Source: an uncultured Gemmataceae bacterium (lineage in GTDB: Bacteria > Planctomycetota > Planctomycetia > Gemmatales > Gemmataceae). From it: a stretch of DNA of 64,000 bases. A program made the position numbers and the translations under genes. The stretch spans positions 2,720,001-2,784,000 of the forward strand of contig CAVVPN010000003.1 of the NCBI GenBank assembly GCA_963750165.1, written 5' to 3'. A model generated the notes under the pieces. It had not been told where the DNA came from. It did no database searches and worked only from the letters and a program-made list of their open reading frames with translations. Positions 13,755 through 38,800 of this stretch are shown in pieces; the stretch's first letter is position 1; each line of letters begins with the position of its first letter.

Positions 13755-16290
13755 ATGATCCGGTTCAACTGCCCTCACTGCCGCGCCAGCTTTCAGGTTC
13801 GCGAGGATCTGTCGGGGCGCGCGGGAACCTGTGCCAGGTGCGACCGCAAACTGCGCATCCCCCTCGCGCCCGTCCGCCGCTCGCTGCTGTTGCCGGCCCT
13901 GGCTGTGCTGACGCTGGTCGCGGTCGGCGGCCTCACCGCCTGGGTGGTCGCCACCAATCCCTTCGCCGGCTCCCAGGTCGAGGAGGGCGGGCAGCGTGCC
14001 GAATCCCCCGCCAGGCCCGCGGGCGACACCAGTCGGGGCCGGCCCGAGGGGCAGAAGAAGGGCGCCCTGGTGACTGCCGAGGGTGAAAAGAACCGGAAGA
14101 ACATTCCTGCCGAAAAGGAGCTAGCCCCGGCCGTCAACTCGACCCCCAATAAGTCCCCCGAGCGGGTGGTCGAGAAGAAGGAACTGGGAGAGAACACCAG
14201 CCCGGTCGAGGACAAGCCCCCCGTGCAGGTGGCCGAGAAAAAGGATCCGGGCAAGACCATCATCAAGAGCCTGGGAGGCGAGGCACTGTCCGCGGTGAAC
14301 CCGCCCAACGACGCGGGACAGGAAGCCAAAAAACCCGAGGAGCCGAAGAAGGCCCCGGAGCAACCGGGCGCGAAGCAGGCGCCCGCGAAGCAGGCCGCCC
14401 CCACGGTCAAACTGGCGGGCTGGAACGCGGTGGTTCGCTTCAAGATCGGCAACGAGGTGTACGTGGCGGCGCTGCCCAAGGAACTGGTCGCGGCGGCCTG
14501 GCTCGTTGGGCCGCTCGTCTCGGAAGGCCGGGTGGTGGTAGTGCCCGTGGAATCCCAGGACAAGGCCCACCCGTATTTGCGCGTGTTGTTCGACCTCCGC
14601 GCGTACAAGGGCGGCGGCAAGCGGCTGGACGTGACGGTGGAGAACACGCTGAACGTGGATGGGGCCACGGCCGTTACCTACGACGTGGACATCAAGGCGG
14701 GGGGCAAGACGCTCTTTCAGCGCGCCAACGTCAAGCACTACTACCTGGCGCGGTGGCGGAAGGTGTTCGCTCTCGGCTTGACCGAGTCCCTGGTGACGCC
14801 CGACTTTGAGCCCTTTATCCGAGCCAGGGCCATGCCGCGCTACCTGACCCGGGTGGCTGACCAGAACTACTCGACCGCGGGGGCGACCTTTGACCTGCTG
14901 AAACGCGGCGGTCTGGCGTACGACGCGATGGGGGCGCCGGGCGGCCGGCCCGAGTTAGGGCCCTACCCCGACTGGGTGGCCACCTACCAGGTCCACCGCA
15001 AGCCCCACCAACGCGCCTACCTGCTGGTCAACGGCGACCTGGCCGGCTCGCAACCGGTGCATATCCGCGAGGCGGACGGTACGCTCGTGTCGATTGACCG
15101 GCATCCCAAGTTCTGGCTGGACTTTCGCGGCAAGGACAACGGCCCGTTGGCCGACCGACCCAAAGGGGACTTGTCGGGTGCCGCCAGGGGTCCGCTCGGG
15201 CCAGACATGCAGCACCAGCCGTCGCTGGCGTACGTGCCCTATCTGGTGACCGGGGACCGCTTCTACGCCGACGAGATGAAGTTCTGGGCCAACTTCAACC
15301 TGTTGGCCGTCTCACCGTTCTACACGCGCAACGACAGTCAGGGCAGCCTCTTTGGGGATTTCGCCAACGGACCCAACGACTTTAGCCTCACCAACCAATA
15401 TGCCGGCGCCGCGCGGCACCGCCTGGCCGCTGCGCAACATGGTCGATGCGGTCGCTTACCTGCCGGACGACGACCCGGAGCGGACTTACCTGGCCCGGAA
15501 GCTGGAAAACAACCTGACCTGGGCCGACCAGTACGCCGCCAAACATGTCACGCCGCTGGGCACGTGTTTCGAGATGCACTCGGGGGCTCCACACACTAAT
15601 ATCAAGACAGGGGACCCGGTGATCTCCGTGTGGCAGAATAACTACCTGGCGTGGGCGCTCGACCATGCCCAGCAGCAGGGGTTCAAGGGCGGCCAGGCGC
15701 TGCGCGACCGGCTGGCGGACTTCCAGTTGAAGTTGTTCACTGGCGGCAAGGACTACCCGCGGGATTACGCCGCCCCTTACTACCCCCTCGTCGGCACGAT
15801 CGACAAGGCGAACAAGATCACCTTTTTCACCACCATGAAGGAACTGTTCGAGGCCACCAACCGCAAACCGGACGGTACGTTGTGGCCGCCGGTCCCCTTC
15901 AATGATTACGGCCGGGATGCCCGGCTGGCGCTGATGATTAGCATCCAGCAAGGCAAGAAGGAAGCCAAGGTGCCCTACGACTGGTTGATGACCCAGCTGG
16001 CCAGGGGCCGGCTCCAGGACGGCTTCGCCATCGCCCTGGAAACGGCCCCGAAGGCACCCAAGGCGGGCACTCCGCTCGGCAAGTACCTGTTGACCAGGGG
16101 CTGGGCGACCTTCGGGATTGCCCTGCCCCAGGGGGTAGCCAGGGGCGGCCTCAAGGTTGGCAAACTGCCGACCCAGACGGATGTGAAAACCACCTGGCCG
16201 GACGGCTCCATTCGGTTTGCCGTGGTGACCGCGTCAGTCGTCACGGCGGGAGCTTACTCGATTACCCCGGCCAAGCAGCCCGCTCAGTAA
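13755..16290 (+). CDS. Membrane-anchored protein: Zn-ribbon + TM + Lys/Pro/Glu linker + lyase-like domain (circularly permuted paralog of the giant protein C-terminus); -2 frameshift near 15408
   Basis: CPHC...CARC; hydrophobic LLLPALAVLTLVAVGGLTAWVV; ORFs 13755..15599 and 15352..16290 join to NQYAGAPRGTAWPLRN, exactly as in the paralog at ~36410-36455. Confidence 0.8.
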
Positions 16291-16333
16291 GGCGGCTGTA
16301 CGCCGCCCACCGCGTCTGTGTGAAGGAGAGGCC

Positions 16334-17287
16334 ATGGCAGTGGGTCAGCAAACCGAGGGGGAAGCGGTGAGCCGGGGGGCGCTCGTCCGCGTCCCGTGTC
16401 CGCTCTGTGAGGGGTCGGCCACGGGACGCGAGCGCAGCGTCAACGGCTTCACCCTGGAGCGCTGCCTGCACTGCGGGTTCGTCTTCGTCAACCCGCAGTT
16501 GCCCCCCAGCGCGCTGCTGGAGCAGTACGGTCACACCGATGTCGCGGCCCAACTCGCCGTCTGGGCACGCATCAACACCCCCACCATGCTCGCGGATTAC
16601 GACCGCGTGCTGGGGGAACTGGAGGCCGTGCTGCCGGGGCGCGGACGGCTGCTGGACTTCGGCTGCGGGCCGTGCTACTTCCTGGAGCGTGCCGCGGCGC
16701 GCGGCTGGGACGCGCACGGCGTGGAACTCGCCGGCTGGTCGCGCGAGGCGGCTCGGGTCCGCAATGTGACGGAGCGCCTGCACGTGGGCCTGCTCGCCGA
16801 CCAGCAATTCCCCGACGGCCACTTCGATGTGGTGTATTCGAGCCAGGTTCTGGAGCACCTGGCCCGTCCGAAGGCCGACCTGCGAGAGCTGTGGCGCGTG
16901 CTGCGGCCGGGCGGCGTCCTGTACCTCAACGTGCCGAACTACCACCGCCTGCCGGTGATGTTCCACATGGACGATTTTGTGCTCGACATGCCCATGGCGC
17001 ACGTCAATTACTTCACCCCGCGGAGCCTCGGCCGCCTGGCGGAGGAGTGTGGCTTCCGCGTGCTGCGCGTGACCACCTATGGCGGTCTGAAGTGGGAGAA
17101 CCTGCTCGGGCGATCCATCACCAGCGAGGTGGTGGACGCCGTGAACGCCCCCACCCAGGCCCCGCCCCCAACGAGCGTGCGCCGGCGCTCGCTGCCGGCA
17201 CGCCTGCTCGCGCCCCTGGTCAAGACGGTGGCCTACCGCTGGGCCAAACTCGGCCTGACCCTGGAACTGTTCGCCCGACGGCCGTAA
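16334..17287 (+). CDS. Class I SAM methyltransferase with N-terminal CxxC...CxxC
   Basis: CPLC, CLHCG, LLDFGCGPC, QVLEHL, LRPGGVLYLNVPN; RBS AAGGAG. Confidence 0.88.
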   Translation: MAVGQQTEGEAVSRGALVRVPCPLCEGSATGRERSVNGFTLERCLHCGFVFVNPQLPPSALLEQYGHTDVAAQLAVWARINTPTMLADYDRVLGELEAVLPGRGRLLDFGCGPCYFLERAAARGWDAHGVELAGWSREAARVRNVTERLHVGLLADQQFPDGHFDVVYSSQVLEHLARPKADLRELWRVLRPGGVLYLNVPNYHRLPVMFHMDDFVLDMPMAHVNYFTPRSLGRLAEECGFRVLRVTTYGGLKWENLLGRSITSEVVDAVNAPTQAPPPTSVRRRSLPARLLAPLVKTVAYRWAKLGLTLELFARRP

Positions 17288-17351
17288 GGCCGCGCCCGGT
17301 TCGTGCCCGCACGGTGGGAAACTTCAACCCTTGAAACGTCGAGGTAGGTTC

Positions 17352-18281
17352 ATGGCCTGGTTGGCAGAGCGAGTGCTGTATCGGCTCGTCAAGCTGTTTT
17401 ACCACACCGAGATTGCCCACAGCCGCCAGATGAAGGCGGCGGAGTCGGACATGGCCCTGTGCAGCGCGTACCGGCGCGGCGACGTGGTGCGCGTGCTCCG
17501 GGCCGCGCAGGCCTACGGCGTGCCGCTGGAGGGCCGCACCGTCCTCGACCTGGGTTGTAGCGACGGCAGTCTCACCTCTCAGTACGTTCAGTACGGCCCC
17601 GCCGAGGTGATCGGCGTGGACGTGCGCGCCGAGGAGGTCGCCCGCGCCCGGCAGCTGGCCGCGGGGCCGGGACTGCGCTACCTGGTCAGCACGCCGGACA
17701 CCATCCCGCTGCCCGACGAGAGCGTGGACGTGGTCGTCAGCTACGACGTGTTCGAGCACGTAACGCAACCGGCCGTCATCCTCCGCGAGTGCAGCCGGGT
17801 GCTGCGGCCGGGCGGCCGGATGCTGATCGGCACCTGGGGTTGGTATCATCCCTTCGCCCACCACATGTGGGCGACCATGCCGGTGCCCTGGGCCCATGTC
17901 CTGTTCTCGGAGCGGACGGTGATGCGGACCTCCCGCCGTGTCTACCTTTCGCCCTGGTACGAGCCGCGCATGTACGACCTCGACGTGCACGGACACAAGA
18001 TCCCCGACAAGTACACGGCGGACGTGATCCCGGTGGATTACGTGAACAAGTTTTTGATCCGCGACTTTGAAGACGCCTTTAAGTCCACCGGACTGCCGTA
18101 CAAAATCAACCTGGAACCGTTCGGCTCCCGGTATGCGCGGTGGACCCGGCTGTTTCTGCGCTTCCCGTATCTGCGGGAATATTTCGCGTCCTACTTCTGG
18201 GCCACGCTGACGAAGCCGGAGCGGGGACAGGCCGCCGCCCAGGCCCGTCGCCAGCCCGCGGTTGTGTTGCAGGCGAATTGA
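17352..18281 (+). CDS. Class I SAM methyltransferase
   Basis: VLDLGCSDG, DVVVSYDVFEHV, RVLRPGG. Confidence 0.88.
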   Translation: MAWLAERVLYRLVKLFYHTEIAHSRQMKAAESDMALCSAYRRGDVVRVLRAAQAYGVPLEGRTVLDLGCSDGSLTSQYVQYGPAEVIGVDVRAEEVARARQLAAGPGLRYLVSTPDTIPLPDESVDVVVSYDVFEHVTQPAVILRECSRVLRPGGRMLIGTWGWYHPFAHHMWATMPVPWAHVLFSERTVMRTSRRVYLSPWYEPRMYDLDVHGHKIPDKYTADVIPVDYVNKFLIRDFEDAFKSTGLPYKINLEPFGSRYARWTRLFLRFPYLREYFASYFWATLTKPERGQAAAQARRQPAVVLQAN

Positions 18282-18334
18282 GTAGTTGGGCCGTTGTTTC
18301 CCGATCCGTATCTCGAGCCAGCGTGAGGTGCCTA

Positions 18335-19165
18335 GTGACTTCGAGTGCGCAACCCCAGACGGACTCACGACCCCTTGAGGCCAGCCTGAACCCGGGCGCC
18401 GCGGCGCACCTGCCGCGGTCAACCGATCAAGCCGAAGCCCGAGTGCGCGGGCTGCTGGAGCAGGTCTACGGTGTCGCCCGCGACGCAGGCGATGACGCCT
18501 TCGTGCGCGCGGGCATGAGCGTCTCCGAGCTGGTGCGGCTGTACGAACTGGTCAGCGCCAATGGCTGCCGCTCCGCTCTGGAAGTAGGCATGGCCACCGG
18601 CACCAGTTCCCTGGCGATCTGCGCGGCGCTTGGGGACAACGGCGGCGGGCGCCTGGCGTCGATTGACCCGTTCCAGTCGTCGGCCTCCGGCTACGCTTCG
18701 GCAGGGGTCGAGAACCTGCGGAAAGCTGGGTTCGAGGGCGCGCACCGCCTCATCGAGCGGCCCGACTATCTCGCCCTCCCCGAATTGCTCGCTCAGGGGG
18801 AGCGGTTCGATTTCATCCTGATCGATGGCTGGCATTCGTTCGACTTCACCCTCGTGGACCTGTTCTACGCGGATCTGCTGCTGCGGACGGGTGGGGTGCT
18901 GGCGTTTCACGACACCACGGCCCCCCAGGTTTACAAGGCGGTTCGCTTCCTGGAACTGCACAAGCCGTACGAACGCCTGTCCCCGCCGTTGGCGAGGCAT
19001 ACCCCGTCTCTGGTCGGCAAGGTGGCGCGGCGCGTGCGGACCTGGCTGCGAGGCCCGGCTGCCCTGGCCGGGGCGAAGGAACGGCGTGAGAAATGGCGGA
19101 TGTTGGCCGCTTACCGCAAACAGGCCGATTCGCAAGTCGCCGAGGACCACGGGACACGGTTTTAG
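18335..19165 (+). CDS. Methyltransf_24-like O-methyltransferase
   Basis: LEVGMATGTS, SIDPFQ, FDFILIDGWHSFD, GGVLAFHD; GTG start after GAGGTG. Confidence 0.82.
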   Translation: MTSSAQPQTDSRPLEASLNPGAAAHLPRSTDQAEARVRGLLEQVYGVARDAGDDAFVRAGMSVSELVRLYELVSANGCRSALEVGMATGTSSLAICAALGDNGGGRLASIDPFQSSASGYASAGVENLRKAGFEGAHRLIERPDYLALPELLAQGERFDFILIDGWHSFDFTLVDLFYADLLLRTGGVLAFHDTTAPQVYKAVRFLELHKPYERLSPPLARHTPSLVGKVARRVRTWLRGPAALAGAKERREKWRMLAAYRKQADSQVAEDHGTRF

Positions 19166-19214
19166 GCCCCGCGTTCGCGAACACCGCCGGCGGATTGGTG
19201 AAGGAACCGTCGTC

Positions 19215-20177
19215 ATGCTCCACCGACTCAGGAAACACCTGGCGTACAGCTACTTCAAGTATCGCACCGGGGGGATTTGCTCCACCCCGCCGCTGCCCTG
19301 CGACCCCGCCGCCGGCTGCGAAGTCCACACCATGCTCGGGGCGCGCGACCTGCCGATGTACCTGCTGGCGGTCAAGTCGCTGCTGCGCTTCGGGCCGCCG
19401 GTCGGTGTCGTCATCCACTCCGACGGCACCCTGACGAGCCGTGAGGTCAACCTGCTCCGCAATCAACTCCCGGGCGCCCGACTCGTGGACGCCGCCGAGG
19501 CCGACGCCCGCGCCCGCACCGCCCTGGGGGCCGACTCCTTCCTGTGGCGCTGCCGCGGCTTCGATGTCAACTACCGGCGGCTGATCGACACGGAGTTGTG
19601 GTGCAACACCCCCAAGCGGATCATCATGGACTCCGACGTCCTGGTACTGCGGCCGCCGCAAGAGGTCATCGACTGGGTCGAGCGCGGCGACGGCCCTTTC
19701 CTCATCGGCGTTCCGCCGAAGAACGCCGGCCCCACCGAGAAGGACACCGACCTGTCCAAGGTCCACGTCCAGGGCGTCTTCCGCGTCAAGTTGCAGGAGA
19801 TCGCCGCGGGCGTGGGGCTGCCGGCCGAGTTCCTGGACGGCACCACCGCCGGCTTCTACGGCTGCACCAACGAACTGTCGCTCGACCGCGTGGAGCGGCT
19901 CGTCAAAACGTGCCTGGACCTGAAGCTGCCACTGCATCACTGGGGCAGCGATCAGTGCATGGTCATCTACCTGCTCTCGGTCACCCGGGCGGTCCGGCTC
20001 AACCCGGAGTTGTATCTCAACTTCTGGCCGGAGGATCTGCCGCGCGTCGCCGGCGCCCACGTCGTCCACTTCCTGGGCACCAACCGGTTTTACAAGCATG
20101 TGTATACCAGCGAGGCGGTGAAAGTCGTCCGGGCGCTCCAGGCCGGGCAGGCGGTCCCGGCCCGGAATCCAGCGTGA
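19215..20177 (+). CDS. Putative GT-A fold glycosyltransferase
   Basis: IHSDGTL, IIMDSDVL (DxD), SDQC, VVHFLG; context within the glycan operon. Confidence 0.55.
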   Translation: MLHRLRKHLAYSYFKYRTGGICSTPPLPCDPAAGCEVHTMLGARDLPMYLLAVKSLLRFGPPVGVVIHSDGTLTSREVNLLRNQLPGARLVDAAEADARARTALGADSFLWRCRGFDVNYRRLIDTELWCNTPKRIIMDSDVLVLRPPQEVIDWVERGDGPFLIGVPPKNAGPTEKDTDLSKVHVQGVFRVKLQEIAAGVGLPAEFLDGTTAGFYGCTNELSLDRVERLVKTCLDLKLPLHHWGSDQCMVIYLLSVTRAVRLNPELYLNFWPEDLPRVAGAHVVHFLGTNRFYKHVYTSEAVKVVRALQAGQAVPARNPA

Positions 20178-20192
20178 CCGAGCGAGAGGCGC

Positions 20193-22223
20193 ATGGCTAA
20201 CACTCTGCTGATCGAACCCCCGGCGAACACCGTGGCCGCGAAGGTCCCCGGGTTCCGCTGTGACGACCACGGCAAGCCGGTCCTCCCGGCGTCGCCGGAG
20301 GCGCTGTACGCCTTCGGCGACCTGATCCGCCGCACCGAACAGCTGATTCTGGCGCAGTTCGGCCGCGGTCTGGTGTCCGGCACCACGCACACCTGTCTGG
20401 GCCAGGAATTGTGCCAGATGGCGGTGGTGCGCGCCCTCGACCACCCCGCCGATGCGGTGCTGTCCAACCACCGCAACCACGGCCACTTCCTCACCTACTC
20501 CGGCGAGTTCGTCGGCCTGGTGGCGGAGGTCATGGGCCGGCAGCGCGGCGTGTGTGGCGGCCGCGGCGGCAGTCAGCACCTGGCCTATCGCCACTTCCAC
20601 AGCAACGGCGTGCAGGGCGGTATGGCCGGCATCGGCGTCGGTCTGGCCCTGGCCCGCCAGCGCCGCCGGGAGCGGGCGGTTGTCGCCGTCCTGGTCGGCG
20701 ACGGCACCCTGGGCGAAGGGCTACTGTACGAGAGCCTGAACCTGGCCGGCGTCTGGCAGGTGCCGGCCCTGTTCGTGGTGGAGCACAACGGCATCGCCCA
20801 GACCACCTGCACCGCGGACACCGTCGCCGGCACCATTGAGGACCGCGGTCGTGCCTTCGGGCTGCCGGTCTGGCGGCTCGACGACGCCGACCCGGACCTG
20901 TTCCACCGAGCCGAGGCCGTCGTCGCCCAGGTGCGCGACAGCGGCCGGCCCGGCTTCCTGGTCATCGACACCCGCCGCCTGGGGCCGCACAGCAAGGGCG
21001 ATGACCTGCGCCCCGCCGCGGAGATGGAGGCCATCCGGACGCGCGACCCGCTCGCCGCCCTGGGGCGGCGCCTCCCCGAGTCGCTGCGCCGCGGCATCGA
21101 GGAGCGCAACGCCGCCTTCCTGCAACAGGTCGAAGCCGAGGCCGCCGCCTCCCCCGAGGCCCGCGACCAGGAGCCACCGCGGCACCTCTTTACCGCCGCC
21201 GCCGAGCCCGCCCCGGCACCGCCGCCGAGCCCGCCCCGGGCCAACGTCCGCGCCGCGCTCAACGCCGGCCTGCGCCACCTGCTCGACAGCGCGGATGACA
21301 CCCTGCTGCTCGGCGAGGACCTGCACGACCCCTACGGCGGCGCCTTCAAGGTGACCGCCGGCCTGTCCACCGACTTCCCAGGACGCGTCCTGTCCACGCC
21401 GATCAGCGAGGCCGGCATCGCCGGTGTGGGCATCGGCCTGGCCCTGGCCGGCCTGCGGCCCGTCGTGGAAGTCATGTTCGCGGACTTCCTGACGCTGTGC
21501 CTGGATCAGCTGTACAACCACGCGGTCAAGTTCCCCGGCGTCTTCCCCGACCTGCGCGTGCCGCTGGTGGTGCGCGCCCCCAGCGGCGGACGGCGCGGCT
21601 ACGGCCCGACGCACAGCCAGAGTCCGGAGAACCTGTTCACCGCCGTCCCGGGCTTGACGGTGGTCTTCGGCAGCCACCGCCACGACAACGGCCGCCTGCT
21701 GGTCAACGCCAGTCAGGGTTGGCCCTACCCGGTGCTATTCTTCGAGCACAAATTGCTCTACAGCGAGACGCAGGCCGCGGGCGATTACCGGCTGCTGGCC
21801 GCCGTCGCCACGGACGCCGCGGCGGAGCTGTTCCCCACTCTGGTGCGCGGCGGCGGCCAGCCCGACGTGACCGTGCTGACCTATGGCGGTATGCTGCCGG
21901 TCGTGGAGGAAGCGGTCCGCCGCCTGGAGGAGCGCGAGGAACTCGCTGTTGAGGTGGTGGTGCCGGCGCTGCTGGCGCCGTTCCCGCGCACGACGCTGGT
22001 CGGCCATCTGCGCGACCGGCCGCGCGTGGTGGTGGTGGAGGAAGCTCATCATCAGTTCGGCTACGGCGCGGAAGTGCTGGCCAACCTGCTGGAGGCCGGC
22101 TTCCGTGGTCGAGCGCTGCGGGTCGGCACACCACCGGTGCCCCTGGCTTCGGCCCGCAGCCTGGAGAAACAGCTCATCCCGGACGCGGAGGCGGTCGCCC
22201 GCGCGGTGCTGCGACTGTTCTGA
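20193..22223 (+). CDS. Fused thiamine-diphosphate-dependent 2-oxoacid dehydrogenase E1 alpha-beta
   Basis: GQE, SNHRNHGH, GDGTLGEG...HN ThDP motif, HSKGDD; beta part GEDL, TPISEAG, EVMFADF, GPTHSQ, FEHK. Confidence 0.92.
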   Translation: MANTLLIEPPANTVAAKVPGFRCDDHGKPVLPASPEALYAFGDLIRRTEQLILAQFGRGLVSGTTHTCLGQELCQMAVVRALDHPADAVLSNHRNHGHFLTYSGEFVGLVAEVMGRQRGVCGGRGGSQHLAYRHFHSNGVQGGMAGIGVGLALARQRRRERAVVAVLVGDGTLGEGLLYESLNLAGVWQVPALFVVEHNGIAQTTCTADTVAGTIEDRGRAFGLPVWRLDDADPDLFHRAEAVVAQVRDSGRPGFLVIDTRRLGPHSKGDDLRPAAEMEAIRTRDPLAALGRRLPESLRRGIEERNAAFLQQVEAEAAASPEARDQEPPRHLFTAAAEPAPAPPPSPPRANVRAALNAGLRHLLDSADDTLLLGEDLHDPYGGAFKVTAGLSTDFPGRVLSTPISEAGIAGVGIGLALAGLRPVVEVMFADFLTLCLDQLYNHAVKFPGVFPDLRVPLVVRAPSGGRRGYGPTHSQSPENLFTAVPGLTVVFGSHRHDNGRLLVNASQGWPYPVLFFEHKLLYSETQAAGDYRLLAAVATDAAAELFPTLVRGGGQPDVTVLTYGGMLPVVEEAVRRLEEREELAVEVVVPALLAPFPRTTLVGHLRDRPRVVVVEEAHHQFGYGAEVLANLLEAGFRGRALRVGTPPVPLASARSLEKQLIPDAEAVARAVLRLF

Positions 22224-22300
22224 CGCTGGCCCAGCCCGTAGGATACACGGACAGGGCCTCCCACCCCGTCGCCGAACCAGACACTCCGGAACAGACCGTC

Positions 22301-23395: not shown

Positions 23396-23410
23396 GGCCG
23401 GGGGGAACCC

Positions 23411-23677
23411 ATGAACTTGCAACGCGATGCCGTCAAGGCTGCCATCCACGGCCGCGTGGTGGAGCTGGCGCGCCGGCTCGGCGGCGACCCCAGCGGGTTC
23501 ACCGACGATGACCTGTTGCCAGCCACGGGCCTGCTCGACTCCGCGGCACTGCTGGAACTGGTGGCGTGGTACGAGGCCGAGTACCGCCTGACGCTGCGGC
23601 AGGAGGACATCAACATCGACAACCTGGGGTCGGTCAACGCCATGACGGACTTCGCACTTGCCCGTCGGGCGGACTGA
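23411..23677 (+). CDS. Acyl carrier protein
   Basis: 88 aa, acidic, GLLDSAALLELV phosphopantetheine-Ser motif, NLGSVNAM. Confidence 0.88.
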   Translation: MNLQRDAVKAAIHGRVVELARRLGGDPSGFTDDDLLPATGLLDSAALLELVAWYEAEYRLTLRQEDINIDNLGSVNAMTDFALARRAD

Positions 23678-23686
23678 GGCGCCACC

Positions 23687-28963: not shown

Positions 28964-29006
28964 CCGTCGGCCCGGCGCTGTCTTTGACCAAAGGATACGG
29001 CTCGCA

Positions 29007-30464
29007 ATGAGTTCAACGCTTGTCCTCGGCCTGGCTGCCACCGGGGCCGCCCCGGCGGCGCCGGCCGCGGCCACCGAGCTGTCGCCCGTCGCCGCTCGCC
29101 GGGCCCTGTTCTGGATCCTCCTGCTCGGCGCCGTCGTTCGGCTGGCGCTGTTGCTGTGGTCCTGGAACCAGCCGCTGTCCATCGAGGACGAGCAGCACTA
29201 CCACCTGCTGGCGGTCAACCTGGTCCGTTACGGCGAGTTTGCCGACGCTCCCGGCGAGCTGACCTCCATCCGGCCGCCGCTGTTCCCGTTCCTGGTGGCC
29301 GGCGTGTACGCGGTCTGCGGCACCGAGGCGCTGGCGGCGGTCCGGCTGCTGCAGGCCGTGCTGAGCCTGGCGACGGTGCTGATCGCTTACCGGCTGGGCG
29401 TGGCGGTCGCTTCGCGGCGCGTCGCCCTGTGGTTGGCGAGCGCGCTGTGTTTCTACCCGTCGCTGCTGGGCTTCAACACCCTGCTGTTGACCGAGGTGCT
29501 GTTCACCTTCCTGCTCAGCGCCTTCTGCCTGCTGGTGGTGCTGTCGGTGCGCCGCGGCTCGCTGGCGGGCATGGCGGCGGCGGGCGGCGTGCTCGGACTG
29601 GCCGCTCTGACGCGCAGCGTCATGTGGTTGTTCCCGCCGGTGCTGGCCGTCTTCCTGCTGTTCGCCTGGCCCGGGCCGCTGTGGCGACGCCTGGCCGCGG
29701 GCGCCCTGGTGGGCCTGGCGTTCGCGGCCGTCATCGCTCCGTGGTCGATCCGCAACACGCAGTTGCAGAAGGTGTTCACGACCATCGACGTGATGGGCGG
29801 CCGCAATTTCATGATGGGCAACTACCGCTATACCCCCCTGTACCGGTCCTGGGACGCCATCGGCCTCAAGGGGGAGGAGAGCTGGGCGTACGAGGTCAGG
29901 ATGACCTATCCCGCCGCGGAACGGGACACGCAGGGAAAAATTGATAAGCTGGCGCTGCGCCAGGGGCTACAATTTGTGCGGGAGCACCCGGGACTGACCC
30001 TGCTGCGCGATCTGGTGAAGTTCTTCGACTTCTGGGGCCTGGAGCGGGAGTTGGTTGCCGGCGCCGTGCGCGGCTACCTCGGCCCGCTGTCGAAACCGGC
30101 GCTGGCCCTGGTGGCGCTGGCGATCTTCGGCAGTTATGCCCTGGCCGTGTTGCTGGCCCTGTTCGGCCTGGTGATGGCGCCGCCCGCTGATCGACGGTCC
30201 TGGTGGTTCCTGCTGCTGGTGGTGGTGTTCGTCTGCGGCATGCACACGCTGGTGTTCGGCCACTCGCGCTATCACCTGCCGCTCATGCCGATCGTCCTGC
30301 TCGGCGCCGCCTGTGCCTGGGTGCAGCGCCGGCAGCTCTGGCAACAGCGGCGCAGCCGGGCCTTCCTGGCGGCGTGCGGATTGTGTGGCGTCCTGCTGGT
30401 GGGCTGGCTCTGGCTGTTCGTGGCCGTTGACCTGAAACTGTTCCTGAGCGCGATGGGCGGTTGA
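29007..30464 (+). CDS. GT-C fold (ArnT/PMT-like) glycosyltransferase
   Basis: IEDEQHY acidic loop, RPPLFP, LLTEVLF, LTRS, PWSIRN, RYHLPLMP. Confidence 0.82.
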   Translation: MSSTLVLGLAATGAAPAAPAAATELSPVAARRALFWILLLGAVVRLALLLWSWNQPLSIEDEQHYHLLAVNLVRYGEFADAPGELTSIRPPLFPFLVAGVYAVCGTEALAAVRLLQAVLSLATVLIAYRLGVAVASRRVALWLASALCFYPSLLGFNTLLLTEVLFTFLLSAFCLLVVLSVRRGSLAGMAAAGGVLGLAALTRSVMWLFPPVLAVFLLFAWPGPLWRRLAAGALVGLAFAAVIAPWSIRNTQLQKVFTTIDVMGGRNFMMGNYRYTPLYRSWDAIGLKGEESWAYEVRMTYPAAERDTQGKIDKLALRQGLQFVREHPGLTLLRDLVKFFDFWGLERELVAGAVRGYLGPLSKPALALVALAIFGSYALAVLLALFGLVMAPPADRRSWWFLLLVVVFVCGMHTLVFGHSRYHLPLMPIVLLGAACAWVQRRQLWQQRRSRAFLAACGLCGVLLVGWLWLFVAVDLKLFLSAMGG

Positions 30465-30547
30465 CCGGACGATTCTTCCAGGGAATTTTCACTCGCATCC
30501 CTGGGGTCGGCGCTCGTCGTGACCGTTTTGTGTACTGGGAAGCAATT

Positions 30548-32467
30548 ATGCCCGGAATTTGTGGCGCCCTGAGTGTGACTCCTCGTTCGGACCCGGACGG
30601 CCTGGTGGCCGAGATGGTCCGGCGGATGAAACATCATCCCTGGTACGTCGAGCAGCAGCACGCCACTGCCGCCGGCGATCTGACGCTGGGACAGGTCACG
30701 CTCGGCCACGGGAACGCCGTCCCTCAATCCGGGTCCAACGAGGACGGCTCGCTGTTGGCGGTGATGGAAGGCGAGTTGCACAACTATGACGAGGAGCGGC
30801 GCCGTCTGGAAGCGGCCGGCCACGTCTTCCACTCCGACAGCCCGGCCGAACTGCTGGCGCACGGCTTCGAGCAGGAGGGCAAGGCGTTCTTCCGCCGCCT
30901 GAACGGCCTGTTCGCGGTCGCGCTGTGGGACGCGGGCCGACGGCGGCTGTACCTGGCCAATGACCGCTTCGGCATCAAGGCGCTGTATTACAGTCAGGCC
31001 GCCGGCAAACTGCTGTTCGCCTCGGAGGTCAAGGCGCTGCTGGCCGACCGGCACTTGCCGCGGGCGGTGGACCCGCGTGGGGCGGCCCAGTTCTTTACCT
31101 ACGGCCACCTGTTCGGGGAAGACACGCTGCACCAGGGCGTGCGGCTGTTGCCGGCCGCGGGCTGGCTGACTTACGACGCGGCCGAGGATCGCCTGACGGT
31201 GGAGCGCTACTGGCGTTTCGAGCCCGGAGCGGTCGCAGCGCCGGCCAGCGAGCCGGAGCAACTGGACCGCCTCGCCGACGCCTTTCGGCGCGCGGTGGCA
31301 CGGCGGACGGGCGGCGACGAGCGATTGGGGCTGTCGCTTTCCGGCGGCCTGGACGCCCGGACGATCCTGGGCGTGGTGGCCGCCGACCGCGAACTCACCT
31401 CCGTCACCCTGGGCATCCCGGGCAGCATCGACCACTGCGTTGCCGCGGAACTGGCGCGCGTGGCCGGGCGGCCGCACCGCAACTTCGTGCTGGACGAGCA
31501 ATTCCTGTCGCGGTTCGAGGACCACCTGCGCTGGATGGTCCACCTGACCGATGGCCACTACCTGTCGCAGTGCATCGTCATGCCGACGCTGCCCGTCTAC
31601 CGCGACCTGGGCATTCAGGTGTTGCTGCGCGGCCACGCCGGCGAGTTGATGCACCTGGACAAGGCGTACAACTTCTCGCTCGACAGCGAAGGGCTGGCGC
31701 TGCGCGACAGCACCGCCCTGGAGAGCTGGCTGTGGCGGCGGTTGCAGACGTACATGCTGGACGAACTGCGCGAGCCGCTGTTCGCCCCCGGCTTCCACTG
31801 CGACGCTGCGGAGCTGGCGCGGGCCTCGCTGCGCGACTGCCTGGCGGAGACGGACGAGGTGACGCCGCCGGCCCAGCGCGTCAGCCATCTGTTCCTGGCC
31901 CAGCGGGTGCGCCGCGAGACCGCTCTGTCGATGCTCGAGTTCGGCTCGCTCGTGTCCATCCGGCTGCCGTACCTGGACAACGACCTGGTGGACGCGCTGC
32001 TGGCGGCGCCGGCGGCGCTGAAGTGGGGGGACCGGATCCAGGCGCACATCCTGCGGCGGCACCAGCCGGCGTTCCTGCGGGTGGTCAACACGAACACGGG
32101 GGCCCGCATGGGCGCGGGGCCGCTGGCGCGGTTCGCTGCCAAGGTGCGGCTCAAGGTGCTGGCCAAACTCGGCGTCGCCGGCTACCAGCCCTATGAGCGG
32201 TTGGGCCTCTGGCTGCGTCAGGAACTGCGGCCGCTGGTGGAGCGCTTGCTGCTGGATCCGCGCTGCCTGGACCGCGGCGTCTTCAACCCCTCGGCGGTGC
32301 AGGCGGTCGTGCGCCGCCACCTGGCGGGCCAGGCGAACCACACCTACCTGTTGATGGCGATGTTGATTTTTGAACAGGGCCAGCGCGAGTTTGTTGATGA
32401 CGAACGGGTCGGAGCCGGTGCGGCCGATCCCGTGGGCGTGCCGGTGGCCCTGAACGGGCCCGGCTGA
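30548..32467 (+). CDS. Asparagine synthetase B-like amidotransferase/amide ligase lacking the N-terminal Cys
   Basis: Starts MPGICG; GELHN, LNGLFAVALWD, DRFGIKALYY, FASEVKAL, LSGGLDART, GHAGE, RLPYLDNDLV. Confidence 0.85.
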   Translation: MPGICGALSVTPRSDPDGLVAEMVRRMKHHPWYVEQQHATAAGDLTLGQVTLGHGNAVPQSGSNEDGSLLAVMEGELHNYDEERRRLEAAGHVFHSDSPAELLAHGFEQEGKAFFRRLNGLFAVALWDAGRRRLYLANDRFGIKALYYSQAAGKLLFASEVKALLADRHLPRAVDPRGAAQFFTYGHLFGEDTLHQGVRLLPAAGWLTYDAAEDRLTVERYWRFEPGAVAAPASEPEQLDRLADAFRRAVARRTGGDERLGLSLSGGLDARTILGVVAADRELTSVTLGIPGSIDHCVAAELARVAGRPHRNFVLDEQFLSRFEDHLRWMVHLTDGHYLSQCIVMPTLPVYRDLGIQVLLRGHAGELMHLDKAYNFSLDSEGLALRDSTALESWLWRRLQTYMLDELREPLFAPGFHCDAAELARASLRDCLAETDEVTPPAQRVSHLFLAQRVRRETALSMLEFGSLVSIRLPYLDNDLVDALLAAPAALKWGDRIQAHILRRHQPAFLRVVNTNTGARMGAGPLARFAAKVRLKVLAKLGVAGYQPYERLGLWLRQELRPLVERLLLDPRCLDRGVFNPSAVQAVVRRHLAGQANHTYLLMAMLIFEQGQREFVDDERVGAGAADPVGVPVALNGPG

Positions 32468-32533
32468 GGCGGCCCCGCACTGCCCGCCCCACCGTCGAAA
32501 CCGGCTTCACTCAGGCTCGCCCCAGGAATTACC

Positions 32534-33472
32534 ATGGCGACTACGTTTTTACCTCCGCCCCCCCAGACACAGGGCCGCCCGAAGCCCCTGCGGATGCTGT
32601 TCGACCTGATGGCCCTCGCGCGTCCGCAGCAGTGGGTCAAGAACGGTTTCGTGCTGGCGCCGCTGCTGTTCAGCCCTGTCGCCTGGGAGCCAGCCGTCAT
32701 CGCCGCCGCCGTCCTGGCGACCGCCTGCTTCTGCGTCTGGTCGAGCAGCGTCTACTGCCTGAACGACGTGCTCGACGCCCGCGCCGACGCGCGGCACCCG
32801 CGCAAACGCTACCGGCCCATCGCGGCGGGGCGCGTCCGGCCCGGGGCGGCCGTCGCGGCGTGCGTCGTCCTGGCCGGCGCGGCGCTCGCAGTCGCTGGCG
32901 TGGCCGTGTCGCTACCCTTGCTGCTCTTCGGCGCCCTCTACCTGGCCAACAGCCTGGCCTACTGCCTGGTACTCAAGTACCGCGTCGTCGTGGATGTCCT
33001 GGCGATCGCCCTGGGCTTCGTCCTGCGGCTCCTGGGCGGTTGCGCGGCGATTGGGGTGGAGCCCAGTTCCTGGCTGCTGGTGTGCGGCTTTTCGCTGGCG
33101 CTGTTGCTGGGCTTCGGCAAGCGCCGCCTGGAGGTGGACGGGTTGGAGCGGGCGGCGGAGTTTCGTCCGGTGCTGCAATCTTACAGCCCGGAGAAGCTGA
33201 ACCTGCTGCTGGGCATCACCGCCTCAATGTGTCTGCTCTCCTACATGCTGTACACCGTGGCCCCGGAGACGGTGCGCGTCCATCACACCGACAAACTTGT
33301 GTACACGACGCCGTTCGTCGCCTACGGGGTCTTCCGCTACCTGTTGAAAGTCCAGGAGGGCCAGCACGACGGGCCCGTCGAGGTGGTGGTCAAGGACTGG
33401 ACCTTTTCGTTGAACGTCCTGTTGTGGGTTGCGAGCGTCTTCGCGATCCTGTGGCTGTCCGGTTCCTTGTGA
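32534..33472 (+). CDS. Decaprenyl/polyprenyl-phosphate phosphoribosyltransferase (UbiA family)
   Basis: ARPQQWVKN, YCLNDVLDARADARHPRKRYRPIAAG, DVLAIALGFVLRLLGG, GKRRLE, YGVFRYL. Confidence 0.87.
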   Translation: MATTFLPPPPQTQGRPKPLRMLFDLMALARPQQWVKNGFVLAPLLFSPVAWEPAVIAAAVLATACFCVWSSSVYCLNDVLDARADARHPRKRYRPIAAGRVRPGAAVAACVVLAGAALAVAGVAVSLPLLLFGALYLANSLAYCLVLKYRVVVDVLAIALGFVLRLLGGCAAIGVEPSSWLLVCGFSLALLLGFGKRRLEVDGLERAAEFRPVLQSYSPEKLNLLLGITASMCLLSYMLYTVAPETVRVHHTDKLVYTTPFVAYGVFRYLLKVQEGQHDGPVEVVVKDWTFSLNVLLWVASVFAILWLSGSL

Positions 33473-33484
33473 GTCCCCCAAGCC

Positions 33485-34174
33485 ATGCACGCGCACCCTG
33501 AGCAACCGCCCCTGGCCGATCCCACGACCCCGCTGGCCGTGTTCGACTTCGACGGCACCCTGGTGCGGAGCGATTCGTTCCTGCCGTTTTTGCTGAGCTA
33601 CGGCTGGCGCCGGCGCCGGTTCCTGGCCCTGCTCACGCTGCCGTTCTACCTGGCCCTGTATGCCCTACGGATCCTGTCGGATCGGGCCGCCAAGGAGCGC
33701 GTCCTCATCGCTTTCCTGCGCGGCCAGTGCAGCGCCGCCATCGCCGAGCACGCGGACCGGTTCTGCCGGAACTGGGTGCAGCGCCGCCTGCGGCCGGAGG
33801 TGGTCGCGCGGCTGCGCGAGCACCAGGCGGCGGGTCACCGGGTCGTCCTGCTGTCCGCCAGCCCGGACGTTTACGTCCCGGCCGCGGCCAACCATTTGGG
33901 CATCAGCGAGGTCATTTGCACCCGCGTGGCCGTCGTCAACGGCCGCTGTGACGGGGCGCTGGAGGGCGGCAACTGCAAGGGGCCCGAGAAGGTGGCGGCA
34001 CTCCGGCGCTACCTTGGGGCGGACTCCCCGCCGCCGGCGTCGTGGGCGTACGGCGACTCGAAGAGTGATCTGCCCGTGTTGAACTGGGTGGGCGAGGGCT
34101 GGTTGGTGCGGCGCAAACGCCTGGTCCGCCTGAGCCCGACCGACCGTATCGTCGGGAACCCTGTCGGGGTGTGA
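33485..34174 (+). CDS. HAD-IB family phosphatase
   Basis: FDFDGTL, LSAS, NCKGPEK, AYGDSKSDLP. Confidence 0.9.
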   Translation: MHAHPEQPPLADPTTPLAVFDFDGTLVRSDSFLPFLLSYGWRRRRFLALLTLPFYLALYALRILSDRAAKERVLIAFLRGQCSAAIAEHADRFCRNWVQRRLRPEVVARLREHQAAGHRVVLLSASPDVYVPAAANHLGISEVICTRVAVVNGRCDGALEGGNCKGPEKVAALRRYLGADSPPPASWAYGDSKSDLPVLNWVGEGWLVRRKRLVRLSPTDRIVGNPVGV

Positions 34175-34210
34175 CTGGCTAGGCGGTCGAACCTTGTTGA
34201 GGGCGGTGCG

Positions 34211-35686
34211 ATGGGCATGCGCTGGCTGTTCAGTGTGCGCGGGCTTGCGCAACTTTTCGGGATCCTGTTCTGCCTCCACTGGGGCTGCACGATGCTCGCC
34301 TTCCCGCTCTACAAGGGCCGACTGGAAGGATACGCCCCGGTCGTCCTGGGGTTGCTGGTGGGCGGGGCCCTCTGTGTGCCCGGGGTGCGCCAGGGACTAT
34401 CCCGGTGGTTGCTCGCCTGGCCGAAGACACGCTTCCTCCTCGGCCTGGTGGTGCTCGCGCTGGCCCTGCGCCTGGCCGCCATCCTGGTGTTCCCCGTCGA
34501 ACCCGTCAACGACCACCGATACTTCCACCGCTATGCGGTCAACCTGCTCGACGGCAAGGGCTACGGCGGCATCCCCTGGCCGCACCTCCGTCACCTCGAT
34601 GGCAACGGCGGCCTCCGGGCGTTCTACCCGCCCGGCATGACCTTCCTGCTCGCCGCCTGGTATCAGTTGACCGGCGCGGGAGCGATCAGCGGGAAGGTGT
34701 TGAACTGCCTGATCGGCACCGGCATGGTGCTGCTCCTGTACGACATCGGCCGGCGCCTGCGGGGGAACCTGGTCGGTCGCTGGGCCGGGTTGACTGCGGC
34801 GGTCCTGCCCACCCTGGTATTCTACAGCGCCTCGCTGGGCTATGAAATCGTGCTGGGAACCCTTTTCTGCCTTGTCCTGGAGATCACGCTCATCTGTCAG
34901 GAACGGGTGAGGTGGTATCACGCGCTGGCGCTCGGCCTCGTCCTTGGGTTCGGCACGCTCGTCAAGCCGGTGTGCCTGCTCGTGCCGGGACTGCTGCTGG
35001 TCTGGTGGCTGTGGCTGGGGTTGGGATGGCGGTCCCTGGCCTGGACCGCGGTCGTCCTGGTCGTTCAGGCGGCCGTCGTGGCGCCCTGGACGGTGCGGAA
35101 TTACTACACCTTCCACCAGTTCGTGCCCGTCTCGACGAACGGGGGGTACGTCCTTTACAGCGCGAACAACCCCGAGTCGTACGGCTTCCACATGCCGGTA
35201 GAGCCGCTCCCTGGGGAGACGGACGAGGTGGCGATGGACCGGGCACGTTCGCGGGCGGCGGTGAGCTGGATCCTGGCCCACCCGGCCGACTTCCTCCGAC
35301 TGGCTGCGATGAAGACGACCATCACCTGGGGGACGGCGAGCACCATTATGTCCTTCCTGTCCTGCGACCGGATGACGGATCGGGAAGAACAGGTGTGCAT
35401 GGCGACACTGAACACCGCCTGGACCGCCCTGCTCGTGGTGTGTTTCTTCGCCACCTGCCGAGCCCCGCTGTGGGGGGAGCGGCGCTTCCTGTTGGCCCTG
35501 CTACTATTGGTCTACCTGGCTGGGTTGCAACTCGTGTTCGAGGCCGAGAGTCGGCACCACATCCCCGCACTGGCCCCCCTGCTCCTGGTCGCCGCCAACG
35601 GCCTGGCGGCGCCCCCGCGCCGCCTCCCCCTCCGTGAAGCCACGGTCCAATCCCACACCGAACTCTCGTCGCTCCAGTCCTGCTGA
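34211..35686 (+). CDS. GT-C fold glycosyltransferase, close paralog of 2029..3498
   Basis: FPVEPVNDH, RAFYPPG, LVKPVCL, PWTVRNY...STNGGYVLYSANNP, GETDEVAMDR. Confidence 0.82.
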   Translation: MGMRWLFSVRGLAQLFGILFCLHWGCTMLAFPLYKGRLEGYAPVVLGLLVGGALCVPGVRQGLSRWLLAWPKTRFLLGLVVLALALRLAAILVFPVEPVNDHRYFHRYAVNLLDGKGYGGIPWPHLRHLDGNGGLRAFYPPGMTFLLAAWYQLTGAGAISGKVLNCLIGTGMVLLLYDIGRRLRGNLVGRWAGLTAAVLPTLVFYSASLGYEIVLGTLFCLVLEITLICQERVRWYHALALGLVLGFGTLVKPVCLLVPGLLLVWWLWLGLGWRSLAWTAVVLVVQAAVVAPWTVRNYYTFHQFVPVSTNGGYVLYSANNPESYGFHMPVEPLPGETDEVAMDRARSRAAVSWILAHPADFLRLAAMKTTITWGTASTIMSFLSCDRMTDREEQVCMATLNTAWTALLVVCFFATCRAPLWGERRFLLALLLLVYLAGLQLVFEAESRHHIPALAPLLLVAANGLAAPPRRLPLREATVQSHTELSSLQSC

Positions 35687-35778: not shown

Positions 35779-35800
35779 TGGGATCGATTGGGAATGACGA

Positions 35801-38800
35801 TTAGATTTGGCTGAAGGCGAAGCCGTTCTGAATGTCATTGAGCTGTGGCGCCAGCCAATTCAGGGCGGCCTGCGCCGCCGCCGCGTCTGGCCCCCCCTGG
35901 TGGATCAGCATCATCATTGCCATCCGGGCGTCCTGGCCGTAGTTGGTGAAGGCGACCGGCGGGTCCACGGTCCCGTTCGACTCGTTGTAGGTCGCGTTGA
36001 ACACCTGCTGGAGGTTGGTGAAATACGTAACGTGCCCCGAACTGTCGATGGTGCCGATTTGCGGGTAGTAGGGCGCAGCGTACGCCTCCGGGAAGTTCGG
36101 GCTGGTGAACAGGCTCAACTGGAACTCGTTCAGTTTGGTTTCCAGAATCTGGCCGCCGGTGAAACCCTGGTCAGCCGCGTGCTGGAGTGCCCACGCGAGG
36201 TAGTCGTCCTGCCACACGGACACAACGGGTTGTCCTTGCGCGATCGGACCCATGGCAACCCCCGCGTTCATCTCGAAATACGTGCCCAGCGGCGTGACGT
36301 GGGCGACGGCATACTGGTCGGCCCAGGTCAGGTTGTTTTCCAACTTCTGGACGAGGTAGGCCTTGTTCGGGTCAGCGTCGGGCAGGTAAGCGGCGGCGTC
36401 GGTGAGGTTGCGCAGCGGCCAGGCGGTGCCGCGTGGCGCGCCGGCATATTGGTTGGTGAGGCTCAGGTCGTTGGGCCCGTTGGCGAAGTCCCCAAAGAGG
36501 AGGCCCTCGCTGCCATTGCGCGTGTAGAAAGGCTGAGAGCCCAGCAGGCTATAGTTGGCCCAGAACTTCATCTCGTCGGCGTAGAAGCGGTCCCCGGTCA
36601 ACAGGTAGGGCACGTACGCCAGCGACGGTTGGTGCTGTTTGTCCGGTTCGAGCGGCCCCAGGGCCGTCGAAGACAGGTCTCCATGCGGCTGGTCGGCCAC
36701 TGGGGTATCGGAATACTGGCCGCGCTGGTCCAGCCAGAATTGCGGGTGGTTGTCGATGGTGACCAACGAGCCGTCGGCCTCGCGGATGTGGACCGGTTGC
36801 GAGCCGGCCAGGTTGCCGTTGGCCAGGATAAACGCCTTCTTGTTCTGGTCGGGATGGACCAGGTACTCGGCCACCCAGTCGGGGTAGGGCGCCAGCTCGG
36901 GACGGCCGCCGGGCGCTCCCATTGCGTCGTACGCCAGGCCACCGCGTTCCTCGATATCGAAGGTTGGGCCGGTGGTCGAGTACTGCACGTCGGGCACCGA
37001 GGACAGGTACTGCGGCAGCGCGTTGGCCTCGAAGTCTTTTTGCAGATCCGGCGTCGATTCGGCCTCGGTGAAGTTGAGGTCGAACGTCTCCCGCCAGCGC
37101 GTCAGGTAGTAGTCGTTAAACGTGTCGTGGTGGTAGAGGTTCTGACCATTGTAGTAGATGTCGGCGGAGGTGGCGATCACCGTGTCGCCCGTCACGTTCA
37201 GGTCGTTCTCAACCGTCACGTCCAGGCGGGTGGAGCCGTCCACGTATGAGCGGATGTCGAAGATCACGCGCAGGTACGGTTGCAGGGTGCCGTCGGCGGC
37301 AACCGGGTCCACGGTGAACCGCTGCTCCTTGACCAGCGGGCCGTTCAGCCACAGGTCGTTCGACTGCGTAGAGGGCACCGCGGCGGTGTACACGGTGCCG
37401 CCGATGTTGAACGACACCGAGGCATTGGGCAGCGTCGGCGTGAGGGCGGGGCCGGTCAGAGCGGGGGCCGCCGACAGGGGGAACACGCCCGCGGTGGTCG
37501 CGTGGACGGTCACGTCCGCGAAGCGGATCGAGCCGTCCGACCAGCGGGTCTGCACGTCGGTCTGGGTGGGCATGGTGCCGACCTGGACCCCCGTGGTGGC
37601 GAAGCCATCGGGCAGCGCCTGACCGAAGGTGGCCCAGCCCGGCGTCAGGGTGACCCCTTCTGTGTTGGTAACCACGGCGGTTGTGGTGGAGGTGACATTG
37701 ATCCCGTCCGAGTCCGTGACCGTCATCGTCACGTTGAAATTGCCGGCCGTGGCGTAGGTGTGGCTCGGCGAAGCCCCGGTGCTGGTGGTGCCGTCGCCGA
37801 AGTTCCAGGTGAACGTGTAGCCGGCCGCCGTGTCCGCCGGGTTCGGGTCCGTGACTGAGGGAGTAAAGACCGTGGGGTCGCCCAGGTAGTTGGTGTATGG
37901 GCCGCTCATGTTCACGGTCGGCGCCGTGTCGGTGGCGGTGATCGTATCGGTGCTGCTGAAGGTGATGCCGTTTTGGTCGGTGGCGGTCAGCGTGACGGCG
38001 AAGGAGCCGTGGTCGTCGGGAGTGAAAGTGAACTGCGCGCCGCTGCCGGTGGCGAAGGCAGTGCCGTTCTTGAGCACCTGCCAGGTGTACGTGTAGGTCG
38101 CCCCCGCGGGCGGGTTGCTGACGCTGCCGGTCAACGCGATCGCCGTGCCTGCCGGGCTCTGCCCCGACGCCGGCGCCCCCGTGATCTGCGCCTGCAGCCC
38201 CGCTTGGGTCACGGTGACGGTGGTCTGGGCCGCGGCGGAGCCGCCTTCCTGGTCCGTGACCGTCACGGTGACGGTGAAGGTGCCACCGCTGGCGTACGCA
38301 TGGCTCGGGGTGCTGGTGGCGGTGGCGGTGGTGCCGTCGCCAAAGTTCCAGTTGTAGCTGAAGCCGGCCGCCGTGTCCACCGCGCTCGGGTCCGTGGCGC
38401 TGGCGGTGAAGGCGACGCCGGTGCCCGCGATGCCCGTGTAGGGGCCGCCGAGGGTCACGGTCGGCGCCACGTAGTCGGCGGTGATCGTATCGGTGCTGCT
38501 GCCGGTGTCGCCGGACTGGTCGGTGGTCGTCAGCGTGACGGCGTACGAGCCGCGGTCGTTGGGGGTGAAAATGAACAGCGATCCGATGCCGGTGGCGAAG
38601 GTGGCGCCATTCTCGATCACGTGCCAGGCGTATGTGTAGGTGGACCCCGCGGTCGGGTTGCTGACGCTGCCGGTCAACGTAATCGCCGTGCCCGCCGGAC
38701 TGTGTGCCGATGCCGGCGCCCCCGTGATCTGCGCCTGAAGAGCCTGACCGGACCCGGTGGTGCCGGTTCCGGTGCCAGTGCCAGTCCCGGTTCCGGTTCC

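Follow-up and report, generated by a model that had tools for sequence, protein, structure and literature searches.

Two circularly permuted orders of one putative glycan-acting module at a surface-polysaccharide locus of an uncultured Gemmataceae bacterium

We analyzed a stretch of 64,000 nucleotides from an uncultured Gemmataceae bacterium (GenBank assembly GCA_963750165.1, contig CAVVPN010000003.1, positions 2,720,001 to 2,784,000 of the forward strand; hereafter the window), in which two paralogous genes on opposite strands and 20 kb apart encode the same three-part module in different orders. The parts are a RIFT barrel, a beta-sandwich and an (alpha/alpha)6 helical barrel; the RIFT segment opens the module in a giant secreted protein and ends the other, smaller protein, in such a way that the order ABC of the first becomes BCA in the second. 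Both genes are located within or against a cluster of genes for surface-glycan synthesis or modification (ABC-2 permease, Wzy_C ligase, Wzt, methyltransferases, pyruvyl transferase, GT2, GT4, UbiA, PMT_2 and asparagine synthase). The coordinates of the features are collected in Table 1.

Table 1. Features of the two paralogous genes and of the cluster around them (window positions).
Feature	Position	Strand	Basis or remark
Surface-glycan synthesis/modification cluster	3828..35686	+	Pfam scan
Small paralog, ~845 amino acids if read through one frameshift	13755..16290	+	BLASTP, order survey
MJ0042-type CXXC zinc ribbon	13761..13844	+	TIGR02098, E 2e-4, 20.8 bits (cut-off 20.9)
Single membrane helix, predicted, residues ~44-66	13884..13952	+	Kyte-Doolittle 19-residue mean 2.2
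Beta-sandwich of small paralog, residues 224-345	14424..14789	+	no special closeness to the giant's sandwich
(alpha/alpha)6 barrel of small paralog, residues 346-760	14790..16032	+	sister of the giant's barrel
Stretch with few synonymous differences from the giant gene (recent conversion likely)	15204..15601	+	codon comparison
Frameshift in small gene, probably an assembly error	15409..15412	+	codon comparison with paralog
New linker from barrel C-terminus to RIFT barrel	16033..16089	+	order survey
RIFT barrel, C-terminal in small paralog	16090..16272	+	61% to giant residues 2010-2070, E 1e-19; PF19501 E 6e-4
Giant secreted protein, ~2,900 amino acids if read through a frameshift near 43720	35801..44583	-	Pfam scan, BLASTP, codon comparison
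PKD repeat stalk, 19-22 stretches by PF18911/PF00801, with Thr-Gly run	37676..43675	-	Pfam scan
RIFT barrel, N-terminal in the giant's module, six strands in model	37466..37654	-	AlphaFold model, PF19501
Beta-sandwich of the giant's module	37061..37426	-	AlphaFold model
(alpha/alpha)6 barrel of the giant's module, with the family's conserved polar residues	35804..37060	-	model, conservation

From its N-terminus, the small paralog consists of a zinc ribbon, a single predicted membrane helix, a low-complexity linker, the sandwich, the helical barrel and the RIFT barrel. Its gene is part of a same-strand operon, placed directly after a GT4 glycosyltransferase gene (12171-13658), as is that of the rotated homolog P0154 described below, and upstream of methyltransferase genes. 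In the assembly it appears as two overlapping open reading frames (ORFs), 13755-15599 and 15352-16290, split by a frameshift at a short GC dinucleotide run, where the gene is 2 bases short with respect to the codons of its paralog. Directly before the sandwich lies the segment VKLAGW (14409-14423, +), which loosely resembles the first strand of the RIFT barrel (V.LT.GW); this very short segment could be the scar of a lost N-terminal RIFT.

The giant ORF (43675-35801, -) closes with the module, 624 residues long. The ORF upstream (43672-44751, -) has a methionine at 44583, a secretion-type leader (LEARLVP), which we take to be of the type found in secreted planctomycete proteins, and DUF4214 repeats, and it extends into the first repeat unit. 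This ORF very likely encodes the actual beginning of the giant protein, with the start at 44583, and is cut off by the frameshift near 43720; the complete layout is then leader, DUF4214 repeats, around 20 PKD repeats and RIFT, sandwich and barrel. The PKD repeats are of two alternating types that form a double unit of ~186 residues, with the Thr-Gly run near 38875-38760, and a strong GC skew was detected across the gene.

Frameshifts were found in three of 17 test loci of the assembly, including RecG and the small gene itself, and this frequency makes assembly error the likelier cause of the breaks in both paralog genes, which are probably artifacts of this kind. A VanZ-like gene (201-1927, +) and a UbiA-like gene (27063-28963, +) of the window are also split across two frames each, as fits assembly indels.

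A natural circular permutation between the two paralogs had been proposed in a reading of the DNA letters and their translations alone (the sequence-only reading), and the sequence blocks that it named were all found in their places: RGGLAYDAMG at 14904 (+) and 36946 (-), HQPSLAY at 15213 (+) and 36634 (-), LFGDFANGP at 15348 (+) and 36499 (-), GWATFG at 16099 (+) and 37639 (-), and DGSIRFA at 16201 (+) and 37537 (-). In BLASTP, residues 224-554 of the ORF 13755-15599 aligned with giant residues 2084-2415 (62% identity, E 1e-133), and the ORF 15352-16290 aligned twice, with giant 2413-2622 (56%, E 1e-77) and, through its residues 247-307 (window 16090-16272), with giant 2010-2070 (window ~37650-37466; 61%, E 1e-19). 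The subdomain of ~65 amino acids, placed by the sequence-only reading at the N-terminus of the module in the giant and at the C-terminus of the small protein, thus proved homologous between the two genes, one of two points on which the proposal depended. Identity between the paralogs is 59% over the core and 61% over the moved RIFT piece, the cut falls at the boundary between RIFT and sandwich, and genome-wide each part has just these two copies at significant E. With all three parts homologous and only their order changed, we regard the circular permutation as practically certain.

The order of the parts was also surveyed among homologs, as the sequence-only reading had suggested for finding the ancestral arrangement. 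Profiles of the three parts were used to classify 308 proteins, namely 306 fetched ones (two of them the window's own fragments) and the two window proteins. The order RIFT-sandwich-barrel was found in 277 and the order sandwich-barrel-RIFT in three (the small paralog, P0103 and P0154); the rest were fragments, two of them barrel-RIFT (P0189 and the one from the window) and 26 lacking a RIFT. PcRGLX, an exo-rhamnogalacturonan lyase of polysaccharide lyase family 26 (PL26), has the normal order too, and together these observations support that the order in the giant protein is ancestral. The rotation recurs with the same cut, and the linker gap is 9-15 residues long in all four rotated proteins. 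P0103 (655 amino acids) and P0154 are intact single rotated chains; like P0189 they come from Joint Genome Institute metagenomes, and P0103 and P0189 were counted as one lineage because they are 79% identical. Residues 1-106 of P0154 are the final part of a GT4 glycosyltransferase that shares its frame with the rotated gene; an overlapping gene call is a likelier cause than a genuine fusion. All rotated copies have a tyrosine at the fifth position before GW; it was rejected as a marker of shared origin, as canonical proteins carry it too.

The family counts at least 500 proteins in one search, distributed in planctomycetes, acidobacteria and others, and its best named homolog here is from Singulisphaera, which like the leader of the giant protein points to a planctomycete. 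In the fetched loci, 81 reading frames had the parts in the normal order, the small gene of the window being the sole rotated one, and 71 genome loci yielded no rotated copy. A search with the junction fragment gave no match in the 40 nearest relatives, and a search with the junction region of P0154 returned 30 proteins, 12 of them new, none of which except P0154 itself spanned more than 82% of the region. Two or more whole family copies were present in 7 of 65 genome loci, three of them head-to-tail and 398-732 bp apart, although some of these loci share a contig. Tandem arrays of two or three members were seen at loci L032, L036, L046 and L077, the last being a Candidatus Doudnabacteria contig with two members.

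The small gene could in principle be an assembly misjoin or a decaying pseudogene whose rotated protein was never made. It is frameshifted, and the reads do not cross the break: in one public soil DNA run two 151-base pieces matched the locus at ≥99% identity, neither of them across the break or the junction, and among the listed RNA sequencing runs none with the locus was found. Moreover, among 266 other genomes of the order the family was present in two and a rotated copy in none, and a DNA pattern for the rotated junction retrieved seven metagenome loci, all seven in normal order, the pattern having matched signal-peptide text. Against this, the junction keeps the frame and its linker is a natural one; the moved RIFT is no assembly copy, being different from that of the giant at 12 of 25 fourfold sites; and conserved residues are intact on either side of the break. 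Frameshifts affect other genes as well (RecG, another test locus and three other genes of the window), and the same junction in three proteins from other samples argues against a one-off misassembly. We therefore consider this explanation very unlikely.

The AlphaFold2 model of the giant's module, built from an alignment of 104 rows, had a mean predicted local distance difference test score (pLDDT) of 94.3 and a predicted template modelling score (pTM) of 0.94, and consists of a six-stranded barrel (residues 8-69), a beta-sandwich (85-200) and a helical barrel (~210-611), the architecture of the PcRGLX/YetA-like fold group. The intact rotated protein P0103 was modelled with a pLDDT of 91.2 and a pTM of 0.91, from an alignment in which 4 of 130 rows (itself included) join RIFT to core; its RIFT shows the same six strands at pLDDT 96-98, connected by a flexible linker (pLDDT 67-70). 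Both orders were thus modelled with the same strands and helices. For a freely dangling 62-residue barrel plus 33 disordered leader residues we estimated a pTM of at most ~0.83, and the higher value obtained suggests that the model fixes the RIFT in place. On these models the RIFT is predicted to pack on the core in both orders, probably at the same place, which speaks indirectly to the second point on which the permutation proposal depended. A fold search with the P0103 model gave only barrel matches among the top 50, without PcRGLX, and is uninformative on RIFT placement.

The sequence-only reading had likened the moved subdomain to the N-terminal barrel of PcRGLX, and this likeness was borne out. 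Of the 61 aligned members, 52 matched the RIFT family PF19501 at E ≤ 0.1 (best 4e-4), the C-terminal RIFT of the window matched it with 20 bits, below the cut-off of 22.1, and PF19501 was annotated in 15-29% of the members of the Atlas neighbors. In hhalign against seven PL26-like proteins, the first of which matches PcRGLX at E 1.5e-97, only the RIFT aligned (E 5.5e-8, probability 94.8), and the alignment stopped after the start of the sandwich. The top structural match of the giant's whole module was PcRGLX (Z 12.5-12.9 over 460-484 residues, root-mean-square deviation 4.2-5.2, 10% identity); one of these searches, against 48,161 representative chains, gave Z 12.6 over 460 residues and a deviation of 4.2. 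The next matches covered the barrel only, at Z 10-11, and were mostly sugar-acting proteins (GH88, GH105, cellobiose epimerases). The sandwich and barrel of PL26 (PF21345, PF21346) were not matched in Pfam at E ≤ 0.001, and PF21346 was absent genome-wide. When Protein Data Bank (PDB) sequences were searched with the module, the profile of the family and that of the RIFT, nothing meaningful was matched, and PcRGLX was not matched at E ≤ 10. Membership in PL26 thus fails at the level of sequence. PL26 enzymes are described as acting by exo beta-elimination on rhamnogalacturonan I (PMC13501991).

The domain structure of PcRGLX (PDB 5XQ3, 5XQG, 5XQJ, 5XQO) and of the YetA-like proteins (PF19501/PF21345/PF21346) follows the same three-part order as the giant's module, with a sequence-related RIFT, but PcRGLX is larger (~900 residues versus ~600 here), its barrel motifs do not align, and the genes studied here are found in a surface-glycan context. 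GH88 and GH105 unsaturated uronyl hydrolases and AGE-family epimerases share the (alpha/alpha)6 barrel (Z 10-11.4 over ~280 residues, 6-13% identity and no sequence match) and lack RIFT and sandwich. No whole-domain family was found in Pfam or NCBIfam, and apart from the weak RIFT match no Pfam model covers these proteins, a candidate for a new family of glycan-active proteins.

Across 185 cores of 40-50% identity, around 30 polar or aromatic residues of the barrel are 90-100% conserved, and they are kept in both paralogs, among them R258, E260, H296, W314, D316, R318, H348, Y357, R415, W419, R422, W488 and R584. The neighborhoods of 14 homologs, with 94 proteins, were scanned in part. Polysaccharide-synthesis genes adjoin the family gene at L008, L009, L047 and L045, an acyltransferase and a methyltransferase only at L007, and sugar-catabolism genes at L015, L022, L020 and L072. 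From fold, conservation and context, the module is probably a glycan-acting enzyme; that it is a lyase specifically is doubtful. A non-catalytic role in glycan binding or scaffolding, as an adhesin tip or a periplasmic guide for polysaccharide, or another barrel chemistry such as that of a hydrolase or an epimerase, would leave the permutation real and the lyase reading wrong. Such a role would suit the position of the module at the tip of the PKD stalk and the fusions with Ig-like, FN3, dockerin and DUF4082 domains in homologs; in addition, hydrolases and epimerases match the barrel alone with similar scores (Z 10-11), and the PL26 barrel is not matched by sequence. However, conservation of so many residues is more typical of an active site, and many homologs are stand-alone secreted proteins, some of them beside catabolic genes, so we hold this alternative to be improbable. 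At L013 and L048 the adjoining genes are of the tricarboxylic acid cycle (citrate synthase, aconitase or isocitrate dehydrogenase), at L060 and L041 they encode the tricarboxylate-binding TctC, and at L068 little is annotated.

The relationship between the paralogs was found to differ along the module. Trees were built with subsets of 33-48 of 185 rows, picked around four proteins of interest. In the tree of the whole core the two window proteins are sisters (support 0.98; Shimodaira-Hasegawa-like approximate likelihood-ratio test (SH-aLRT) 97), and a single clade of rotated proteins is rejected (approximately unbiased test, p-AU 0.0015); the two or three independent permutations deduced from this tree were downgraded after partitioned analysis. 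A sliding-window comparison placed the giant first or second in closeness to the small paralog, among 184 proteins, only at residues 344-644; its rank fell to 52-181 within the sandwich and to 154 within the RIFT. Rare residues shared by the paralogs number 42 in the central barrel, 11 in the barrel tail up to the new linker, two in the sandwich and none in the RIFT, that is, 53 over 415 barrel residues versus two over 192 beta residues. The description of the pair as close paralogs therefore holds for the helical barrel and not for the beta parts, and as only their barrels are sisters, an origin of the permutation between these two paralogs, implied in the sequence-only reading, is not established.

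Direct signs of exchange were detected in the barrel. Within the tract 15204-15601, 15 of 97 codons for identical residues differ between the two genes, versus 93 of 245 outside it, a contrast as extreme in 1 of 200 shuffles. Inside this tract lies a barrel insert of ~15 residues common to both paralogs (15351-15407, +; ~36500-36440, -), which is of low confidence in the giant model, the short form without it being found in 152 of 185 cores. Sisterhood of the two barrels persists when the recent tract is left out (33 rows, SH-aLRT 98.7), and grouping the three rotated proteins in one clade is rejected with a p-AU of 3e-5, whereas the maximum likelihood tree of the beta parts (33 rows) places the three rotated proteins together, plus the canonical long branch P0094. 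Reduced synonymous divergence and conflicting trees, the two marks of gene conversion, were thus both found, with the conflict reaching significance only for the barrel. Of its rare beta residues, the giant has 8-11 in common with P0123, P0001 and P0005 and only two in common with its paralog. These data tip the balance towards a small gene that is a mosaic, with older rotated beta parts around a barrel overwritten from the neighboring giant gene.

The permutation could also be recent and local, with a lineage-specific duplication of which one copy was rotated later, independently of P0103, P0154 and P0189, and with beta parts that drifted in composition between an acidic surface copy and a basic anchored copy; structure and function would be the same. 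The sisterhood and the rejected rotated clade in the whole-core tree would follow directly from such a history, the beta-part tree leaves sisterhood standing, the net charge of the beta parts (+11 versus -12 between the paralogs) is in line with the drift, and the giant departs from conserved sandwich positions. By contrast, two shared rare beta residues is the lowest count of seven barrel-matched pairs (this pair included; median 11), the giant retains its rare beta markers with other homologs, and there is direct evidence of conversion between the two genes. We consider this history possible, but rather unlikely.

The explanation that we favor, with a probability of about 0.55, is that the same module occurs here in two circularly permuted orders, compact in either, likely glycan-cleaving, and that the rotated gene is older, its barrel having been overwritten. 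The substrate of both copies would be the surface polysaccharide of the cluster itself: the small one, likely membrane-anchored, would trim or clear the polymer outside the inner membrane, and the giant one, likely on a long secreted stalk, would act at the surface. In the rotated order a linker of 10-20 residues from the barrel end would carry the RIFT to the core. Permutation by duplication, in its standard form, starts with read-through across a tandem pair, after which the outer parts are lost, and most simply the rotated gene would have arisen in this way, by loss of the first RIFT, before it came to lie at this locus; its barrel would later have been overwritten, more than once, by gene conversion from the neighboring giant gene.

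Several observations weigh against one or another part of this explanation. In the beta parts, joining the paralogs as sisters lowers the log-likelihood by 33 units, which falls short of rejection (p-AU 0.09; a weaker search gave 0.42), and the grouping of the rotated proteins derives entirely from RIFT columns, mostly polar ones, which together with the strong charge difference makes convergence possible. The small paralog has no excess of rare beta residues shared with P0103 or P0154, and a fused tandem intermediate is absent from the 308 proteins classified. Both paralog genes are frameshifted in the assembly, with the breaks not covered by the reads found. As for the function, the profile match to PL26-like proteins is limited to the RIFT end and no catalytic residue was matched to a characterized enzyme; Z scores of 10-13 are unspecific for helical barrels, as terpene cyclases and complement score 9-10; and 5 of the 14 neighborhoods lack glycan genes (L013, L048, L060, L041 and L068).

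A bolder version, which we regard as unlikely, is that the proteins are PL26-like lyases with a position-independent RIFT, in which the barrel is repeatedly copied from the giant to the anchored copy so that both track the same changing polysaccharide. If true, the rotated layout would set the catalytic barrel between two beta modules, the permuted pair would be under concerted evolution, and the locus would be a natural test of the effect of chain order on folding and activity.

Circular permutation is a known phenomenon, as in GH70 versus GH13, DNA methyltransferases, swaposin and concanavalin A, where the same parts are likewise rotated and a short linker spans the old ends, and a cut at a domain boundary, as here, instead of inside a fold, is its mildest form. 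This case stands out in that one locus holds both members of the pair, that the same cut recurs and that the barrel has apparently been exchanged between the orders. Natural permutants have mostly been recognized between distant families; at this locus, with 20 kb between the two orders and ~60% identity between their barrels, chain order could be examined as a single variable. A further lesson is that a rotation may be older than it looks, since gene conversion can give it a recent and local appearance. In the mainly open-access literature that was searched, no publication was found on the family or its rotation, nor on a rotated form of the PcRGLX fold.

Polysaccharide synthesis operons are known to include glycan-clearing enzymes, such as AlgL, PslG, PelA and BcsZ. 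By analogy, the window pair would likewise provide a glycan-acting barrel, likely facing the periplasm, within a synthesis cluster; it differs from them in belonging to another family and in having a giant secreted copy. Inside the cluster of the window, at 20193-23395 (+), a fused E1 alpha/beta thiamine-dependent dehydrogenase was found together with a lipoyl/acyltransferase gene, which perhaps supply an acyl or branched-sugar modification.

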